A program made the translations under genes and the position numbers. Of a stretch of 41,915 nt of DNA, positions 10,034 to 37,222 are shown in pieces. Under the pieces are notes generated by a model. That model worked only from the letters and a program-made list of their open reading frames with translations. It made no database searches and was not told the origin of the DNA. The stretch covers positions 1 to 41,915 of the forward strand of contig CAYRGU010000130.1 of NCBI GenBank assembly GCA_964423845.1, written 5' to 3'. This stretch comes from an uncultured Nitrospirota bacterium. GTDB lineage: Bacteria; Nitrospirota; Nitrospiria; SBBL01; SBBT01. Within the stretch, counting starts at the first letter, position 1; each line of letters opens with the position of its first letter.

Positions 10034-11977
10034 ATGCGCTTTTTTAGTCGACTCGGAAAAAGCAAGCTGGCCGCTGTTTCACTGTTGGGTGCCATCGCAA
10101 TACTGATCGGTCTCCCTCTTTTCTCTCAAGGGGTCCTGCCGCTCGCAGGGATTGCGCCACTCGCCGTGGGGGCAGAGGAGGTTGCCGCGCCTGAAGCGGA
10201 GGCGAAGGTTGTAAAGGGGAAGGATGTCTACTACAAGACAGAGGGCATCGTGTCGGGTCCTCCGGCGCCTAAGCTTAAATACCCTGACGACTATGGCACC
10301 TACGGTACTTTTCAGAGCCGTACGTTGGTCTGGATGGCCAATCAGCAGCACCTTTATTTTGGGAGTTTCGTTCTTGCGGTTCCCATGTTTGTTTTTGTGA
10401 TGGAATTGGTTGGGATGCTGCAGAAAGATAAAAAGATGGGCAGAAAATACGATGATCTGGCCCATGAGTTTATGAAGATCAGTCTGACCGCCTACTCCAT
10501 TACCGCGATTTTGGGAGGTCTTCTGATTTTTACCTTTCTGGCCCTTTATCCTGGTTTTTTTGGGTACCTCGCTCGTATTTTCAGGCCGATCATGCACGTT
10601 TATGCGCTTCTGTTTATTCTGGAGAGCGGAACGCTTTATGTGTACTACTATGGCTGGGATCGGATGAACGACGATGGTTTCTGGAAGTGGGTCCATCTCT
10701 CCATATCCCTCCTTTTGAACACAATTGGCTTGGCGCTGATGTTTTTTGCGAATGCCTGGGTGGCCTTTATGCAGTCGCCTGCGGGGGTGGACGAGCAGGG
10801 GCAGTTCTTGGGAAATATCTGGCGCGTTGTGCATACCCCCCTTTGGATCCCCATTGTTGTGCATCGGATTCTCGGAAATGCGGCGTTTGGGGGGGGCGTT
10901 GTAGCGGCTTACGCAGCGTATCGTCTTTTGGCGGCAAAAACTCCGGAGGAGAAGGCCCATTACGATTGGATGAGCTATACGGCGATGTTTATGGGTGTTT
11001 TAAACCTTATTCCTCTTCCGTTTGCGGGCTATTGGCTCATGCGTGAGGTCTATGCGTACCGTCAGCAGATGGGCATTACGCTGATGGGGGGCTTGCTTGC
11101 GTGGGTCTTTATTATGCAGGCCACGATGATTGCGACCCTTTTTGTAACGGTGAATTACTATCTTTGGCAGGCGATGGGCAGGATGCCGGGGGGAGAGAGA
11201 TATTATAAGTATTTCAAGTACATGCTCCTCGTATTGATTGTCTCGACCATATCCTGGCTGACACCGCATACCATCGTGATGACGCCTGCGGAGCTCAAGG
11301 CGATGGGCGGCGCGCAGCATCCTATCGTGGGAAACTATGGCGTGATGTCGGCAAAAAATACCGCCATCAACATCATGATCACCACGACGGTGCTCTGTTT
11401 CATTCTGTATCAGCGTTGTAATAAGGTTCCAACTGTAAAATGGGCGCGGGTGGGGAATCTTATTTTGGGTGCGATGTTTATTGGTGCCGCGTTTAATATT
11501 ATTTTCTTGGGGATATACGGCTATTATATCCCGGCCAATGTCCGTATTGGTCTTTCTGTCCCGCAGGTCTGTACGACCCTGACGACGCTGTTTGTGGGGG
11601 TCACCATCAACACGTTGATGTTGAAGAATGCCCGGTCTCTGGGGGAGATACGGTGGGGGACGCTTTCGACGAGGGGGGCCTATGCCCTGTTCTTGTTAGC
11701 GGTGGCGTTTACCTGGACGATGGCCGTGATGGGGTATATTCGCTCATCGGTTCGTTTGCATTGGCATATTAACGAGATTATGCGTGACAACTCCCCGTGG
11801 GCGTTCACCAATCCAATTGGCTATGCGGGCAACGTAAATTCAATGAATGTGTTGATTTTTTGGACCATGTTGTTGTTTGTATTCTGGTTGGGGGCGCTGG
11901 CTGCGAAGAAGGCCCCAGTGAAAGAGCCGGTTGGCGTCTTGCCCGGTGAAGTACCTGTGCCTGCGGATAGCCATTAA
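10034..11977 (+). CDS. CydA-like polytopic membrane protein (cytochrome bd-like oxidase subunit I homologue)
   Basis: 647 aa, with AAGGAGG 6 nt upstream. Blocks align by eye to CydA: QQHLYFGSFVLAVPMF (His19 region), FILESGTLYVYYYGWDRM (FFLES..GW region with the conserved Glu), ANAWVAFMQSPAG (ANSWMQ.PVG) and PIVVHRILGNAAFGG (His186 region). I count roughly 14 hydrophobic segments. An N-terminal signal/anchor and an Ala/Glu/Pro-rich segment precede the CydA-like core. Confidence 0.85.
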   Translation: MRFFSRLGKSKLAAVSLLGAIAILIGLPLFSQGVLPLAGIAPLAVGAEEVAAPEAEAKVVKGKDVYYKTEGIVSGPPAPKLKYPDDYGTYGTFQSRTLVWMANQQHLYFGSFVLAVPMFVFVMELVGMLQKDKKMGRKYDDLAHEFMKISLTAYSITAILGGLLIFTFLALYPGFFGYLARIFRPIMHVYALLFILESGTLYVYYYGWDRMNDDGFWKWVHLSISLLLNTIGLALMFFANAWVAFMQSPAGVDEQGQFLGNIWRVVHTPLWIPIVVHRILGNAAFGGGVVAAYAAYRLLAAKTPEEKAHYDWMSYTAMFMGVLNLIPLPFAGYWLMREVYAYRQQMGITLMGGLLAWVFIMQATMIATLFVTVNYYLWQAMGRMPGGERYYKYFKYMLLVLIVSTISWLTPHTIVMTPAELKAMGGAQHPIVGNYGVMSAKNTAINIMITTTVLCFILYQRCNKVPTVKWARVGNLILGAMFIGAAFNIIFLGIYGYYIPANVRIGLSVPQVCTTLTTLFVGVTINTLMLKNARSLGEIRWGTLSTRGAYALFLLAVAFTWTMAVMGYIRSSVRLHWHINEIMRDNSPWAFTNPIGYAGNVNSMNVLIFWTMLLFVFWLGALAAKKAPVKEPVGVLPGEVPVPADSH

Positions 11978-19808: not shown

Positions 19809-21422
19809 GTGATTTTCCCTTCCTATGATCTTTTTTGCAAGAAGGCTGGCGAGGGGAACCTCATCCCGGTCTATCGCGAGATGATCGCGGACACAGAGAC
19901 CCCTGTCTCCGCGTTCCTGAAAATCAGGGGCAGCGCTTATGCCTATCTTTTGGAAAGCGTAGAAGGGGGGGAGAAATGGGGCCGAAATTCTTTTCTGGGC
20001 ACGGATCCGCTCCTTGTGATCCGGGGCTATGGTCATTCCGTCGAGGTGATTAAAAATGGGACGACCTCCGTCATCCCTTCGAAGAATCCCCTGAATGTTT
20101 TGAGGGGGATCCTCTCTGAATTTAAACCGGTCCCTCTCGATGGCCTCCCTCGGTTCTTTGGCGGGGCGGTTGGCACCATGGGATATGGCGCCGCCCGCTT
20201 TTTTGAACAGGTTGAATCAAAAAGAAGTGATCCCGCCGCCTTACAGTTTATTTTCCTTCTGGCTGAAACCCTGCTTGTTTTTGATAATGTGGCGCATCGG
20301 ATAAAAATTATTTCCAATACCTTGATCCAGGATTCAAACCTCAAGCCTGATTCAGATCTTCAGGAAACTTACCTGAAGGCTGTAGAAAAAATTAATCAGG
20401 TGGTGCACCGGCTGGAGCAGCCCGATACTTCTGGGTTCAGTCAAATGTGCGATGAGTGGGAGGCGGCCCCTACGCGGGGTGCGGCCCCTACGACGGGTGC
20501 GGCCCCTGCGAGGGGTGCGGCCCTTGCGAGGGGTGCGACCCTTGCGAAGGGTGCGGCCCCTGCCACGCCTTCTGCGAAACGTGCCCCCCCCCAGTCCAAT
20601 GTCTCGCGGGAGGCGTTTAAAGAAAAGGTGCGGATTGCGCAGGACTATATCAAGGCGGGGGATATTTTCCAGGTCCAGCTTTCCCAACGTTTTTCGACCA
20701 CACTGACGTGCGATCCCTTCCTGGTCTATCGGGCCCTTCGGAGTATTAATCCGTCCCCCTACATGTACTATCTTCAATTTGAGTCGCTCCGGCTGGTGGG
20801 AACCTCTCCGGAGGTGCTGGTCCGGTTAGAGGAACGGGAGGTCACGATGCGTCCGATTGCCGGAACGCGCCGCCGTGGCGAGAGTCCAGAGGAAGATCTG
20901 AAAATGGCGTCTGATCTTTTGTCCGATCCCAAGGAGTTGGCGGAACATATCATGCTCGTGGATCTCGGACGAAACGATCTGGGTCGCGTCTGCGAGTATG
21001 GAACCGTCAAGGTCAACGCGCTGATGGTGATCGAGCGGTATTCTCACGTCATGCATATTGTTTCGAATCTGGTGGGCCGACTGCAGAACGGAAAGGATGC
21101 GTTTGATTTGCTGAAAGCCGCTTTTCCCGCTGGGACGGTCACCGGGTCTCCCAAGATTCGGGCCATGCAGATTATCGAGGAGTTGGAACCTTCCGACCGG
21201 GGATTTTATGCGGGGATGGTTGGCTATTTTAGTTTTCAGGGAAATCTGGATACCTGTATTACCATCCGGACCATTATTATTGACGGCGACTGTGCCACCA
21301 TTCAGGCGGCTGCGGGGATTGTGGCGGATTCAGACCCGGATCTGGAGTATGAAGAGACGGTGAATAAAGCCCGCGCGATGTTGATGGCAATTGAACTTGC
21401 GGAGCGGTGGACGAGACGATGA
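19809..21422 (+). CDS. trpE: Anthranilate synthase component I, carrying an in-frame repeat insertion
   Basis: 537 aa with a GTG start. [33 protein letters not shown] and [11 protein letters not shown] are typical of TrpE. Residues about 219-252, [34 protein letters not shown], are encoded by the 18-nt repeat. Confidence 0.93.
20463..20564 (+). repeat. 18-nt tandem palindromic repeat, about 5.7 copies, in frame inside trpE
   Basis: Units: GCGGCCCCTACGCGGGGT / GCGGCCCCTACGACGGGT / GCGGCCCCTGCGAGGGGT / GCGGCCCTTGCGAGGGGT / GCGACCCTTGCGAAGGGT / GCGGCCCCTGCC. In the best-conserved units CCCCT and AGGGG form an inverted repeat. Confidence 0.85.
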
Positions 21423-32715: not shown

Positions 32716-33834
32716 CTATGGAATGGGAACCACAATCTGCGTGCGTGTTTTATCGGGACGCGGTTCTTGCTGGAGGGGGGGGATCACGGGAATTGCGGTC
32801 TCCATCGGAGGGAGCCCTTCCGTCTGAAACTCGCTCAACACGGGGTATTCAAGGGCCGGTGCCTGGGAGACGTTCCCACTGGTTTCTGTCCTGGCCTCAC
32901 CCGGCGCGGCAGCTTGAGATGCCGGTTCCTGGGCCTGGGAGACGTTCCCACTGGTTTCTGTCATGGCCTCGCCCGACACGGCAGATTGCGGGGCCGGTTC
33001 CTGGGAGACGTTACCACTGGTTTCTGTCCTGTCCTCGCCCGACATGGCAGCTTGCGGGGCTGGTTTACTGACCCCGCTATCAGGGGGCGCTGTTTTGGCC
33101 CCAGATTTTACCTCGGACGCCGGAGTCGGTGGCGTGTCTATCCGAGGCGTCTCGGTGGGGGTCCTCCCCGCAGAGACGGTTGTGGATTCAACACGCTCCG
33201 CCACTTCCGTGGCGGCCATCAGTTCCGCACGAAGTTCCGCTGGCGCCACTGCCGGCGGCGAAGGGGGAATCTCGCTCCCAACGAGGGTATAGGTATTCGG
33301 TGTCAGGAGGACCGATTCTCCGGGCGTTTCATGGCTGCTTTTGACTTCCACGGACCCTTCCAGGCCCAAAACACCTGTGGCGGGCACGCCATTGACCTCG
33401 GTATTCCAGACAATAAAATAGGTGCCTCGCGCTGCGGCCACTGCTGTGGGGGTGTGAATTTCAAAGCGGGAGTTGCTTCCCGTGAAAAGTTTGCCCACAA
33501 GAACGCGAACGACGCCATTGCTCATTTCAATGAGGGTGCTTCGGCGGTTATTTTCAGGGTCATAAATGCTCTCCGTGATTTTAATCCGCGACCTTTCGCC
33601 CAAGCTCAAGATACTGTCATCTTCAAAGAGAAGTTTCAGTTTGGATTGAACGCCCGTCTTATAGGTATCCAAGAATAAGACGGCGTCCCCCCCTTTTGCG
33701 GTGATTATTTCGCTCTGATTGTCGTGGATGACATGGCCTTCGCGTTGCACGGCCGCGACCGATCCAATCAGCGTTTCGCACCATCCTATCGTGGGGAGGA
33801 GAAGGGCCATCAATAAAGTTAGGGGGATTTTCAT
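32716..33834 (-). CDS. Secreted FecR-domain protein with a Pro/Thr/Ser/Glu-rich repetitive C-terminal tail
   Basis: 372 aa with signal peptide MKIPLTLLMALLLPTIGW. The FecR-like beta-rich region is GSVAAVQREGHVI...GDAVLFLDTYKTGVQSKLKLLFEDDSILSLGERSRIKI. The tail contains three 22-24-aa repeats. Confidence 0.8.
   Translation of the reverse strand: MKIPLTLLMALLLPTIGWCETLIGSVAAVQREGHVIHDNQSEIITAKGGDAVLFLDTYKTGVQSKLKLLFEDDSILSLGERSRIKITESIYDPENNRRSTLIEMSNGVVRVLVGKLFTGSNSRFEIHTPTAVAAARGTYFIVWNTEVNGVPATGVLGLEGSVEVKSSHETPGESVLLTPNTYTLVGSEIPPSPPAVAPAELRAELMAATEVAERVESTTVSAGRTPTETPRIDTPPTPASEVKSGAKTAPPDSGVSKPAPQAAMSGEDRTETSGNVSQEPAPQSAVSGEAMTETSGNVSQAQEPASQAAAPGEARTETSGNVSQAPALEYPVLSEFQTEGLPPMETAIPVIPPLQQEPRPDKTRTQIVVPIP
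32855..33065 (-). repeat. Three tandem 66-72-bp coding repeats in the FecR-domain gene
   Basis: CTGGGAGACGTT(C/A)CCACTGGTTTCTGTC recurs at 32863, 32935 and 33001 (periods of 72 and 66 nt). It encodes ...(E/A)xTETSGNVSQ(E/A)(P/Q)... three times. Confidence 0.8.
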
Positions 33835-35367: not shown

Positions 35368-36353
35368 GCGGTCTCTACAGTATCCATGGCGTAGTGGACG
35401 GCGCCGATTAAAGGCGTCTCGGGGGCGAGAATGACGTGAACCGGAATGCGATTTAACCACTCCTGAAACCGCCCCTTGCTTAAAAAGGCGTTCATGAAAT
35501 GCCCCGCCTGTAGCACGGAGAGGATCTTGGGGGCAATCCCTCCGCCGACAAAGATCCCTCCGGTTGCCCCGACCTTGAGGGCAAAATTACCGGCCTCTGC
35601 GCCATAAATGGAAGCGAACAGCCGAATTGATTCCTGGCACAGGGGGTGGCCTTCCTCGCGCGCGACTGCGGTAATGCCCTCCGCAGGGTCGCCGAGGGCC
35701 AGACGCTCCCCCAGCCAGGGCGGCTCGTCCGCGAAACCGGTCTCTTTGAGAAACCGGTAGAGATTAACCAACCCCGCCCCGGAAAGAATCCGTTCGATGC
35801 TGACATGTCCCCACAGAGGGCTTAGAAACTGGAGTAATTTTATTTCCTGATCCGACCGGGGCGCAAAATCGGTATGTCCCCCTTCCGTGGCGATCGGGAG
35901 ATAGCGGTTTCCCGTCCAGCAGAGAAACGCTTCTCCGAGGCCGGTTCCTGCCGCAAGCGTGCCGATGGGGCCATTGGGGTCCGGGAGCCCTGAATTTAGT
36001 GTGACCCTTTGCCGACCGGTCAGAAAGCGTGTGCCATAGGCGATCGCCTGCACATCGTTGAGAAGGAGGACACGAGGAATGTGAAGCAGGGTTTCAAGAG
36101 CGGCCGCGTCAATGTCCCAGGAGAGGTTTGTCATCTGGCACCTCTGATTTTGAATGGGACCTGCGACGGCGAATACGCCGGTTGTCACAGAAGGCGCACC
36201 TTCCAGAAATTGCGTCAGAATCGCCTCGAAGTTTACGAACGATTGATTCAGGTAAACCGCCTCCTTAACCGGAGTCAGCGTTCCAGAACCCGTTTTTGAA
36301 AAAAGAGCGAGCGCGGTTTTGGTCCCGCCGATATCGCCTGTCAGGAGGATCAT
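35364..36353 (-). CDS. glk: Glucokinase
   Basis: MILLTGDIGGTKTALALF (ROK/Glk N-terminal ATP motif), GLGEAFL and GGIFVGGGIAPKIL. The ATG at 36353 overlaps the pgl TGA (ATGA). The track ORF extends to 36434. Confidence 0.88.
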   Translation of the reverse strand: MILLTGDIGGTKTALALFSKTGSGTLTPVKEAVYLNQSFVNFEAILTQFLEGAPSVTTGVFAVAGPIQNQRCQMTNLSWDIDAAALETLLHIPRVLLLNDVQAIAYGTRFLTGRQRVTLNSGLPDPNGPIGTLAAGTGLGEAFLCWTGNRYLPIATEGGHTDFAPRSDQEIKLLQFLSPLWGHVSIERILSGAGLVNLYRFLKETGFADEPPWLGERLALGDPAEGITAVAREEGHPLCQESIRLFASIYGAEAGNFALKVGATGGIFVGGGIAPKILSVLQAGHFMNAFLSKGRFQEWLNRIPVHVILAPETPLIGAVHYAMDTVETA

Positions 36354-37222
36354 CCCCGATGCCTTAAGTCGTGTGCCGCAGCTCGGTCGACAAGCCAGAG
36401 GCACTGTCCGTGTTGCGGGCGAATCTGTTGGCAAGGGAGGGCTGTGGCGGGGGGCGCGCCTTCAAAAACCTGGGACAGGGCCGGGGCCTTGTCTTGTCCG
36501 ACCACCAGGAAAATAATGAAGCGGGCCTGATTGATGATGCAGGGGGTTAGGGTCAGGCGGTTTCCATGACGGGAGGTCACCGGTACGACCCAGCGATGGG
36601 TCTCCTGCCACGTGGCCGCGCCCCCCGCAGGGGTCGCACCCCTCGTAGGGGCCGCAGCGCTCGCAGCTCCCGCTTCCGGAAAGAGCGAGGCGGTATGTCC
36701 ATCCGCCCCCATGCCAAGGAGCACCAGATCAAACGCGGGCGGGGTTGCGCCCCTGGCAGGGGTTGCGCCACCCGCCGGGGTCGCACCCCTCGTAGGGGTC
36801 GTTGGCCCCTCGACGGAAGAGGGCGTAAAATGCCGCTGAATGTCCGCTTCATAGCGGGACGCTGCGCCGTCTAAATCGGGGTCCTCCGCTTCCATCCGGT
36901 GAATGAAGTGGGCGGGGATGCCAAGCGGTGTCAGCAGGCATTCTTTTGCCATCTGGTAGTTGCTTTCCGGATGATCCGGCGGGACGGCGCGTTCGTCGCC
37001 AAAAAAGAAGTGAGTTTTCAGCCAGTATTCTTCGTTGGGATCTCTGGCCAGCAGGGAATAGAGCCCTTTTGGGGTGGCCCCGCCCGCCAGGACAAAACGG
37101 AACGTCTCCCGCTCACGAAGCGCCTCCCTCGCGATCCGCGTCATTTGTCGGGCCGCTTCCCTAAAGACCTGATCGGGATGATTTAGGATATGGGGCGGGT
37201 TGATGGTTAGAGGGCCCTCCAT
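36350..37222 (-). CDS. pgl: 6-phosphogluconolactonase, carrying two in-frame repeat insertions
   Basis: 290 aa. FRFVLAGGATPKGLY, FFGDERAVPPDHPESNY and FDLVLLGMGADGHTASLFP are Pgl/NagB-family signatures. PTRGATPAGGATPARGATPP and APTRGATPAGGAA flank the GMGADGH block. Confidence 0.85.
   Translation of the reverse strand: MEGPLTINPPHILNHPDQVFREAARQMTRIAREALRERETFRFVLAGGATPKGLYSLLARDPNEEYWLKTHFFFGDERAVPPDHPESNYQMAKECLLTPLGIPAHFIHRMEAEDPDLDGAASRYEADIQRHFTPSSVEGPTTPTRGATPAGGATPARGATPPAFDLVLLGMGADGHTASLFPEAGAASAAAPTRGATPAGGAATWQETHRWVVPVTSRHGNRLTLTPCIINQARFIIFLVVGQDKAPALSQVFEGAPPATALPCQQIRPQHGQCLWLVDRAAAHDLRHRG
36615..36655 (-). repeat. 18-nt palindromic repeat, about 2.3 copies (block A), in frame inside pgl
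   Basis: The plus strand reads ...GGGGTCGCACCCCTCGTAGGGGCCGC. The reverse complement, GCGGCCCCTACGAGGGGTGCGACCCC, is the same unit as in trpE. Confidence 0.8.
36741..36802 (-). repeat. 18-nt palindromic repeat, about 3.4 copies (block B), in frame inside pgl
   Basis: Plus-strand units: GGGGTTGCGCCCCTGGCA / GGGGTTGCGCCACCCGCC / GGGGTCGCACCCCTCGTA / GGGGTCGT. Confidence 0.8.

Follow-up and report, generated by a model that had tools for sequence, protein, structure and literature searches.

How does one and the same 18-nt repeat come to lie twice inside the gene of a conserved enzyme, on either side of its most conserved segment, and again in an unrelated gene of the same contig, in the same reading frame? 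The question is raised by a 41,915-nt contig of an uncultured Nitrospirota bacterium (CAYRGU010000130.1; its whole length is called the window in the following), in which pgl, the gene for 6-phosphogluconolactonase (Pgl), contains two arrays of the repeat and trpE another one. We consider it likely, judging from sequence comparison, that the pgl blocks belong to a family of very small, self-complementary repeats with a dispersed distribution, that is, slippage-prone coding palindromes which are carried as passengers; it is this dispersed family, and not the shared frame, which is the interesting part. The features concerned are collected in Table 1.

Repeat arrays around the invariant block of Pgl

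The pgl product is a 6-phosphogluconolactonase by its match to PF01182 over residues 16-276 (E=3e-61; 207.6 bits against a Pfam cut-off of 27) and by the presence of the motifs GDER and GxGxDGH, of which D76, E77, R78, G170, G172, D174, and H176 are invariant. Within the gene, Tandem Repeats Finder (TRF) detects two arrays of period 18, at 36614-36656 (2.4 copies) and 36741-36799 (3.3 copies), with a spacing of 84 nt, in line with the approximately 2.3 and 3.4 units set 85 nt apart which had been read from the letters in the first-pass annotation. The unit in both arrays is CCT-ACG-AGG-GGT-GCG-ACC, translated as PTRGAT. Two exact copies of the 18-mer CCTACGAGGGGTGCGACC lie on the minus strand (36632-36649 and 36779-36796), a 22-nt string is identical in both arrays, and four more matches with up to two mismatches lie in tandem in trpE (20469-20540); the total of six compares with 0.07 expected and was reached in none of 100 shuffles, which bears out the earlier claim of a repeat common to pgl and trpE. 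That the frame is identical in the two genes also holds: CCT stands in codon register in all three arrays, the offsets from the start codons being 426 and 573 in pgl (37222-36796 and 37222-36649) and 660 in trpE (20469-19809), all multiples of 3. The peptides which had been given for the two other frames need correction in part, as RGRTPRRG, listed together with PLRGVRPL, belongs to the antisense strand and not to the sense (minus) strand.

The translation of pgl reads …TTPTRGATPAGGATPARGATPPAFDLVLLGMGADGHTASLFPEAGAASAAAPTRGATPAGGAATWQ… and contains TTPTRGATPAGGATPARGATPP-AFDLVLLGMGADGHTASLFP-EAGAASAAAPTRGATPAGGAAT, just as quoted earlier for the surroundings of the conserved segment. In coding sense, the upstream array has a degenerate half-unit in front of its full units, and the downstream array is led by the degenerate unit GCT GCG AGC GCT GCG GCC.

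Table 1. Position of the repeat copies in the window, with the host gene pgl and its conserved block
Feature	Position	Strand	Basis and remarks
pgl, 6-phosphogluconolactonase, 290 aa, host of both arrays	36350..37222	-	PF01182
Upstream array (coding sense), three full 18-nt units PTRGAT-PAGGAT-PARGAT (aa 143-160)	36743..36805	-	TRF, exact 18-mer, alignment gap
Conserved block FDLVLLGMGADGHTASLFP (aa 164-182), between the arrays	36677..36733	-	invariant columns
Downstream array, three 18-nt units AASAAA-PTRGAT-PAGGAA (aa 186-203), the first degenerate	36614..36667	-	TRF, exact 18-mer, alignment gap
trpE array, about 5.6 units	20463..20563	+	TRF, 89% matches; host gene 19809-21422
Fourth, decayed copy, read GVLPLAGIAPLAVG (frame class R1)	10127..10166	-	nhmmer repeat profile, E=0.0054

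Both blocks are insertions on either side of the most conserved segment of the protein, as had been proposed: when the window protein is aligned to 19 homologues (45-54% identity), 21 additional columns appear in it before PPAFD and 18 after SLFP. The former are the upstream array, placed between the helix of residues 117-132 and the strand of residues 166-171; the latter correspond to the downstream array including its degenerate leading unit, 54 nt in all (36614-36667). The invariant GMGADGHTASLFP block is flanked by both. Of the 120 best homologues, 108 contained the anchor motifs used to survey spacing; GDER and GxGxDGH are 69-70 residues apart in 97 of the 108 and 91 in the window Pgl, and DGHTAS and RLTLT are 26 apart in 103 of the 108 and 42 in the window Pgl. 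The possibility that orthologues generally carry unrelated loops of similar length at these sites, which would have left the nucleotide identity to trpE as the only oddity, is thereby removed.

The doubt previously cast on the function of the enzyme finds no support in the computed evidence. All 48 invariant columns of the 19-homologue alignment are kept, including GDER and GMGADGHTASLFP, and within the block between the arrays D165, L168, G170, G172, D174, H176, T177, A178, S179, L180, F181, and P182 are present. An AlphaFold2 model calculated with the inserts has a confident core (mean predicted local distance difference test score, pLDDT, 83; predicted template modelling score, pTM, 0.84) and an intact fold, whose best matches in the PDB are 6-phosphogluconolactonase (6PGL) structures (target-normalised TM-score 0.80-0.88). 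The two inserts, residues 133-165 and 184-204, are the only parts modelled as low-confidence coil (pLDDT 51-66 for the upstream insert, below 50 for residues 184-204). Further, the reading frame is open, its start overlaps the last 16 nt of zwf (37207-37222) and its stop overlaps the start of glk in the sequence ATGA (36350-36354), overlaps that are typical of a translated operon; together with gnd upstream, zwf-pgl-glk looks like one translationally coupled operon. Because the 48 invariant residues are kept and the model is that of a normal fold with disordered inserts, Pgl is probably still functional. The pgl arrays, with 75-80% matches in TRF, show the strongest decay among the copies of the repeat family that were seen; this suggests long-standing tolerance.

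A third site of Pgl is occupied in an NC10-like homologue (P0063) by a 51-aa in-frame insert (alignment A1, columns ~249-299; …YPAASRGVSS…LDTESS…WIPASAGMT…), which looks like the translation of a different palindromic element, similar to repetitive extragenic palindromic (REP) sequences, and for this reason suggests that Pgl loops have been hit repeatedly by REP-like palindromic DNA.

A nine-nucleotide hairpin module and its distribution

On the coding strand, the unit reads ACCCCT-ACG/GCG-AGGGGT-GCG, that is, two 6-nt arms which are reverse complements of each other, and 3-nt loops. It thus consists of two nested palindromes, each arm of a tandem array being able to pair with either neighbour, and is better described as an alternation of the 9-nt half-units ACCCCTGCG and AGGGGTGCG. 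An array can fold, on either strand, as a chain of stacked 6-bp hairpins of 15 nt each; a consensus array of three units has a folding energy of -36.9 kcal/mol when treated as RNA and of -19.9 kcal/mol when treated as DNA (z ~-5 on both strands), and the decayed pgl arrays still have z values of -1.7 to -2.6. Array lengths range from 27 to 108 nt, each a multiple of 3, with 3-11 good half-units per array, whether odd or even in number; arrays start and end on either type of half-unit about equally (17/15/13/12). The working module is therefore 9 nt, equivalent to three codons, whose gain or loss keeps the frame. A variant, GGGGGTGCG, recurs near array ends in several loci and in pgl.

The trpE array sits in the linker between the two TrpE Pfam domains (residues 28-166 and 267-520) and is translated into 30 residues in the PTRGAT-type frame. 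TrpE homologues have 491-497 residues, the best (64% identity) being from Nitrospirota metagenome-assembled genomes (MAGs); none of those compared has an array at this site, at which the Mycobacterium tuberculosis protein is ~41 residues shorter. One homologue (P0168) has a 12-aa insert, GVATGVRPLRPG, at a different site (alignment columns ~60-72), resembling a decayed array in the LRGVRP frame. The fourth copy in the window matches the repeat consensus at ~28 of 36 nt; it lies in an ORF for a bd-like oxidase subunit (10034-11977, plus strand; Cyt_bd_oxida_I match), in the N-terminal region just after the predicted signal or transmembrane segment, and is oriented opposite to its host gene, so both orientations of the repeat occur within 42 kb.

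An unrelated tandem repeat of 66 nt (32853-33065; 3.1 copies, 81% matches) is found in the ORF 32716-33834 on the minus strand; it encodes, within the C-terminal half of a FecR-domain protein, 22-aa repeats of the pattern PAPQxAxSGExxTETSGNVSQ and looks like an ordinary locus-specific coding minisatellite.

The wider distribution of the repeat was assessed in relatives and other genomes, which do not include the genome of the window itself. A scan for CCCCTRCGAGGGGTGCG in one genome per species listed 105 stretches as matches; among these, the Nitrospirota MAG CAZQIT01 (67% nucleotide identity to the window over 2.7 kb) has at least 16 loci with the repeat, two Candidatus Troglogloeales MAGs and another Nitrospirota MAG also contain it, and tandem arrays are present in MAGs labelled Clostridiales, Clostridia, and Desulfovibrionaceae. 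The window TrpE itself is closest to Nitrospirota proteins. A 26-nt pattern of the repeat was found at 41 metagenome loci. Overall, more than 50 loci, in genes unrelated to each other, contain the unit; array-bearing stretches have 43-70% GC. The only IMG/VR contig matched in two scans (IMGVR_UViG_3300027891_000005, 89,989 nt; loci L125, L128, and L147) encodes a phage capsid protein (PF25209) and TnpB; its array of four units, read GVAPLAG, lies in a 508-aa ORF without a Pfam match (L125, 9616-11142). We found no description of the repeat in the literature, an absence which is no proof of its being undescribed; Rfam gave nothing at gathering score in the window, and chance-level matches with the array alone.

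These data bear on another explanation, namely that the blocks are lineage-specific low-complexity loops which arose by codon slippage in place, their likeness to the trpE array being convergence by way of GC-rich codons for Pro, Ala, Gly, and Arg. The sites as such would permit it, since the TrpE site is a variable linker and the upstream Pgl site tolerates length variation, as seen from an unrelated 17-aa insert there in the homologue P0045. However, a 22-nt identity between the two pgl arrays and the excess of matches in the window do not fit convergence, and this nucleotide sequence is found again in dozens of genes of unrelated kinds, in other frames, in both orientations, and in genomes of very different GC content. 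Moreover, the codons used are rare in the genes of the window, where AGG accounts for 8% of Arg, CCT for 16% of Pro, and GGT for 13% of Gly codons; the use of such minor codons argues that the arrays arrived as DNA rather than having evolved in place as peptide. Already contradicted by the dispersal, slippage in place deserves hardly any credence.

Peptides read from the arrays

The two strands of an array differ in their loops only (GCG versus CGC), and arrays with GCG loops are without stop codons in all six frames. For the GCG-loop unit these read PARGAT (F0, the frame of pgl and trpE), LRGVRP (F1), CEGCDP (F2), GRTPRR (R0), VAPLAG (R1), and SHPSQG (R2). In the relatives, Pfam domain alignments run across arrays within the same ORF in at least five of the six frames. 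The hosts in which a domain spans the array are, for F0 (read PARGAT), DUF7948, a GHL10 hydrolase, RNase R, a PBP transpeptidase, an alpha/beta hydrolase, and adenylosuccinate lyase; for R1, DNA polymerase I (PolA; read GVAPLA), an AMP-binding enzyme, and an SMC_N/RecN-like protein; for R2, AlaRS and RNase R (both read GSHPSQ), DUF1839, and ComEC; for R0, an ATP-dependent DNA ligase (read GRTPRR); and for F2, a semialdehyde dehydrogenase (read CEGCD). In an E2 acyltransferase (L140), the array lies between the E3-binding and catalytic domains. Protein calls of public pipelines carry arrays in all six frames; they were obtained with a query of synthetic peptides from the six frames, which gave 16 weak matches, the composition correction of HMMER having lowered the scores.

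As ORF length proved an unreliable guide to the coding frame in loci above 64% GC (e.g., L133 and L145), frames were counted only in Pfam-supported ORFs, arrays outside the matched domain being included. The 31 arrays from outside the window then divide into 11 in F0, nine in R1, six in R2, two each in F2 and R0, and one in F1, which departs from uniform use (chi-square ~16.8, p ~0.005). With these frequencies, three arrays would all be in F0 with p ~0.045 and in any one shared frame with p ~0.08; since all six frames occur and the biased tally makes coincidence a matter of some 5-8%, the frame shared by pgl and trpE is, on this count, unremarkable and of low significance. The first-pass annotation had seen in it either frame-selective insertion or strong selection on the frame that survives. 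In its strict form, the former is refuted by the six frames in relatives and by the copy of opposite orientation in the oxidase gene; the latter, milder alternative agrees with usage skewed to neutral, small-residue frames. Of the outcomes considered for a repeat census, run here on the relatives, the use of several frames was observed and strictly uniform use was not. The skew is towards the three frames with a net charge of no more than one per unit and no cysteine, which fits a survival bias.

Two observations on single loci may be added. In one NACHT/HEAT gene (L106), two single units of opposite orientation lie 73 nt apart (1432-1449 and 1522-1539) and read LRGVR and VAPLV. The same array variant, …ACCCCTGCG GGGGGTGCG ACCCC…, read GVAPPAGVAPLAG, is present in two genes of two genomes, polA (L012, 1246-1281) and the gene for aspartate-semialdehyde dehydrogenase (Asd; L114, 750-785); that these might be orthologues sharing an insert was rejected, one being PolA and the other Asd. 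Together with the recurrence of GGGGGTGCG, this hints at subfamilies or at multi-unit blocks moving together.

Spread of the module and its relation to known elements

Comparison of orthologues indicates how arrays come and change. Two RNase R orthologues with 65% amino acid identity (L016, 3-2087, and L130, 1378-3360) have clean arrays at different sites, 54 nt in F0 in one and 72 nt in R2 in the other, so that one gene has been hit repeatedly and independently in sister lineages. The gene of L130 has, besides one fresh array, two decayed inserts, QRATCPARDPVPPARGSTPAGSPTS and QRALRGTQPL; that of L016 has a different array, 550 nt from the one of L130. The orthologues L113, L133, and L135 contain nine, seven, and five half-units, separated by exact gaps of 18 and 36 nt. 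As to junctions, no target-site duplication was found in 57 arrays with the exception of L119 (806-885), where a perfect direct repeat of 19 nt, GCCGGAGCGTCCGATGCGA, stands on both sides of a two-unit array; this sole case may be a local 54-nt tandem duplication instead. Neither was a target motif found in the flanks of the arrays, the composition of which shows fading repeat only.

These patterns would be accounted for if copies of the repeat DNA were introduced into new sites, grew and shrank there in 18-nt steps by replication slippage, and persisted where the added Gly/Pro/Ala-rich peptide falls into a loop or linker which tolerates it and where the peptide of the frame used is benign. The two arrays of pgl lie in the loops that precede and follow the catalytic strand and loop, and the inserts would most simply be passengers. 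Our preferred guess for the arrival at new sites is copy choice or a template switch, at stalled forks, into another array, or else microhomology repair; this would fit the varying phase and length of arrays, the missing duplications, and the fading of the flanks into partial units.

The alternative for this step is a transposase specific for single-stranded hairpins. Accordingly, the arrays might be non-autonomous mobile elements which are cut and pasted by an enzyme of the REP-associated tyrosine transposase (RAYT) or IS200/IS605 TnpA type encoded elsewhere. Y1 transposases leave no target-site duplication, as is the case here, and the GC-rich hairpins, the presence of the same DNA in genomes of very different GC content and in a phage, and the resemblance of the window's ACG-loop variant to REP sequences, in that its reverse strand reads GTAG followed by the palindrome, would all suit such enzymes (for background on REP and RAYT, see PMC2817692). 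However, GTAG is found only in this variant, the commoner one reading GCAG; the copies are intragenic, head to tail, and made of a variable number of 9-nt modules instead of being discrete extragenic units of 20-40 nt, and they occur in both orientations within the window. Beyond that, no Y1 transposase was seen in the window or beside arrays, the TnpB gene of the phage contig being the only transposon-like gene seen. We regard cutting and pasting of this kind as unlikely.

Several points weigh against the passengers' spread by copying and slippage which we favour. The window holds only four copies, the dispersal over many genes being seen in the genomes of relatives, and the taxonomic labels of the non-Nitrospirota MAGs are putative. 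A mobilising enzyme was not identified, the window containing neither a transposase or RAYT nor a reverse transcriptase. The position of the downstream pgl insert would correspond to the active-site lid segment of NagB superfamily relatives, and the insert may affect catalysis. Mismatches to the consensus are spread over codon positions 1, 2, and 3 as 52/43/45 (p=0.62), without excess at the third position and hence without a direct sign of selection on the peptide (a hand count for pgl alone gave 7/1/9, which is marginal). Lastly, in L133/L145, the one orthologue pair compared in this respect, the arrays are almost identical while the flanks have 79% identity; near-identical arrays amid diverged flanks could reflect gene conversion, or selection acting at the level of DNA or RNA, instead of passenger status.

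The pair L133/L145 is also the main support for the proposition that arrays are kept for a function, be it as flexible linkers or lid extensions, as structured mRNA or DNA which tunes translation or folding, or as protein binding sites. The location of arrays in natural linkers, such as those of the E2 acyltransferase and between the domains of TrpE, and the richness of the peptides in Gly, Pro, and Ala would be in keeping with it. The same DNA, however, gives unrelated peptides in six frames, its hosts are functionally unrelated, its copy number varies between close orthologues, and its presence or absence differs between sister lineages; in addition, the pgl copies are decayed and the mismatches bear no codon-position signature of selection on the peptide. 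A retained function is thus distinctly improbable as the reason for the arrays, and we continue to favour passengers which are copied into new sites and reshaped by slippage.

Which known elements does such a family resemble? The textbook case of repeats inside essential genes is that of the Rickettsia palindromic elements (RPEs), single elements of ~100-150 bp which are restricted to Rickettsia and for which we know of neither a mobilising enzyme nor a mode of spread. They are palindromic DNA said to have been found by Ogata et al. in 2000, in frame, in unrelated housekeeping genes. The repeat described here is likewise dispersed palindromic DNA which lies in frame in unrelated housekeeping genes and leaves the host fold intact, as Pfam alignments span the arrays and the Pgl model has the 6PGL fold; both appear tolerated as the extra peptide lies on the protein surface, and no mobilising enzyme is known for either. 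It differs in being a 9-nt module or 18-nt unit which forms head-to-tail arrays of 27-108 nt, is subject to slippage, has six usable frames, and resides in Nitrospirota, a few other lineages, and one phage. RPEs are mentioned in PMC1779305. With REP sequences and bacterial interspersed mosaic elements (BIMEs; PMC2817692), the family has in common short GC-rich multi-copy hairpins, the alternating polarity of neighbours, and the lack of target-site duplications; those elements are extragenic, 20-40 nt long, preceded by 5′ GTAG or GTGG, and separated by linkers, whereas the present repeat is mostly intragenic, contiguous, and peptide-encoding. Palindromic amphipathic repeat coding elements (PARCELs; PMC2996958) are likewise tandem coding repeats with dyad symmetry in the DNA and a patchy distribution suggestive of horizontal transfer, but consist of 75-nt units, encoding 25 amphipathic residues, which build whole ORFs of unknown function or surface proteins; here, six Gly/Pro/Ala-rich residues per 18 nt make up small inserts in conserved enzymes. 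The in-frame change of copy number in unit steps, seen in L113/L133/L135, is that of coding variable-number tandem repeats (VNTRs), whose unit, however, is locus-specific and not common to many unrelated loci of different genomes. DNA uptake sequences (USS/DUS) and the cyanobacterial highly iterated palindrome HIP1 are also short, over-represented intragenic motifs with a frame bias to benign peptides; unlike the present arrays, they accumulate by substitution in existing sequence, add no length, and form no tandem hairpin arrays. The repeat thus behaves like an RPE but falls outside the definitions of RPE (by size, architecture, and host), REP (by location), and VNTR (by lack of locus specificity); most likely, the family is analogous to the Rickettsia elements and much smaller.

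CRISPRs (clustered and regularly interspaced short palindromic repeats) form arrays of 28-37-nt repeats which are separated by unique spacers of similar length. A link to them came up through a spurious ORF, P0133 (253 aa, on a 3.76-Mb ENA contig), which runs across a type I-C-like CRISPR array (ISIHAPREGCD / FQSTHPARGAT / FNPRTPRGVR). Its back-translation gives a unique result, the I-C-type repeat ATTTCAATCCACGCACCCCGCGAGGGGTGCGAC, whose hairpin part, ACCCCGCGAGGGGTGCGAC, and the array string ACCCCTGCGAGGGGTGCGAC are the same but for one 1-nt indel, an inserted T. The unit might therefore be derived from, or interact with, the type I-C hairpin, arrays being by-products of adaptation or decoys for Cas5d. 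P0133 was found, however, by searching with array peptides, which entails a selection bias, and GC-rich palindromes are low in information content; the arrays are contiguous, without spacers and without the 3′ handle GTGGATTGAAA, the I-C repeat was found in none of the 147 loci collected, and no CRISPR-DR family of Rfam was matched. A CRISPR origin thus appears very unlikely and the likeness is probably a coincidence.

A bolder proposal, which we hold to be doubtful, is that the arrays are the footprint of an active, sequence-specific process which writes the 9-nt hairpin module into DNA. Candidates may be a single-strand transposase directed by the hairpin, a polymerase or reverse transcriptase which synthesises repeats that are captured at breaks, or an offshoot of type I-C CRISPR; such a process may act on chromosomes and phage DNA alike, having crossed phylum boundaries. 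If true, no smaller mobile coding module would be known, and bacterial enzymes would have in it a general source from which new disordered loops arise. Bacteria rarely have repeats that colonise the interior of essential genes, and here the module is far smaller and found in free-living Nitrospirota and beyond. As the family shows measurable insertion polymorphism and change of copy number, the spread of such DNA could be studied in it as a tractable system; it also amounts to an experiment of nature on what loops of conserved enzymes can accommodate 6-36 additional residues and what peptide frames survive. For the lineages concerned, there are practical effects as well: gene callers will be misled by the arrays, marker genes will appear more divergent than they are, and short-read assemblies will break.

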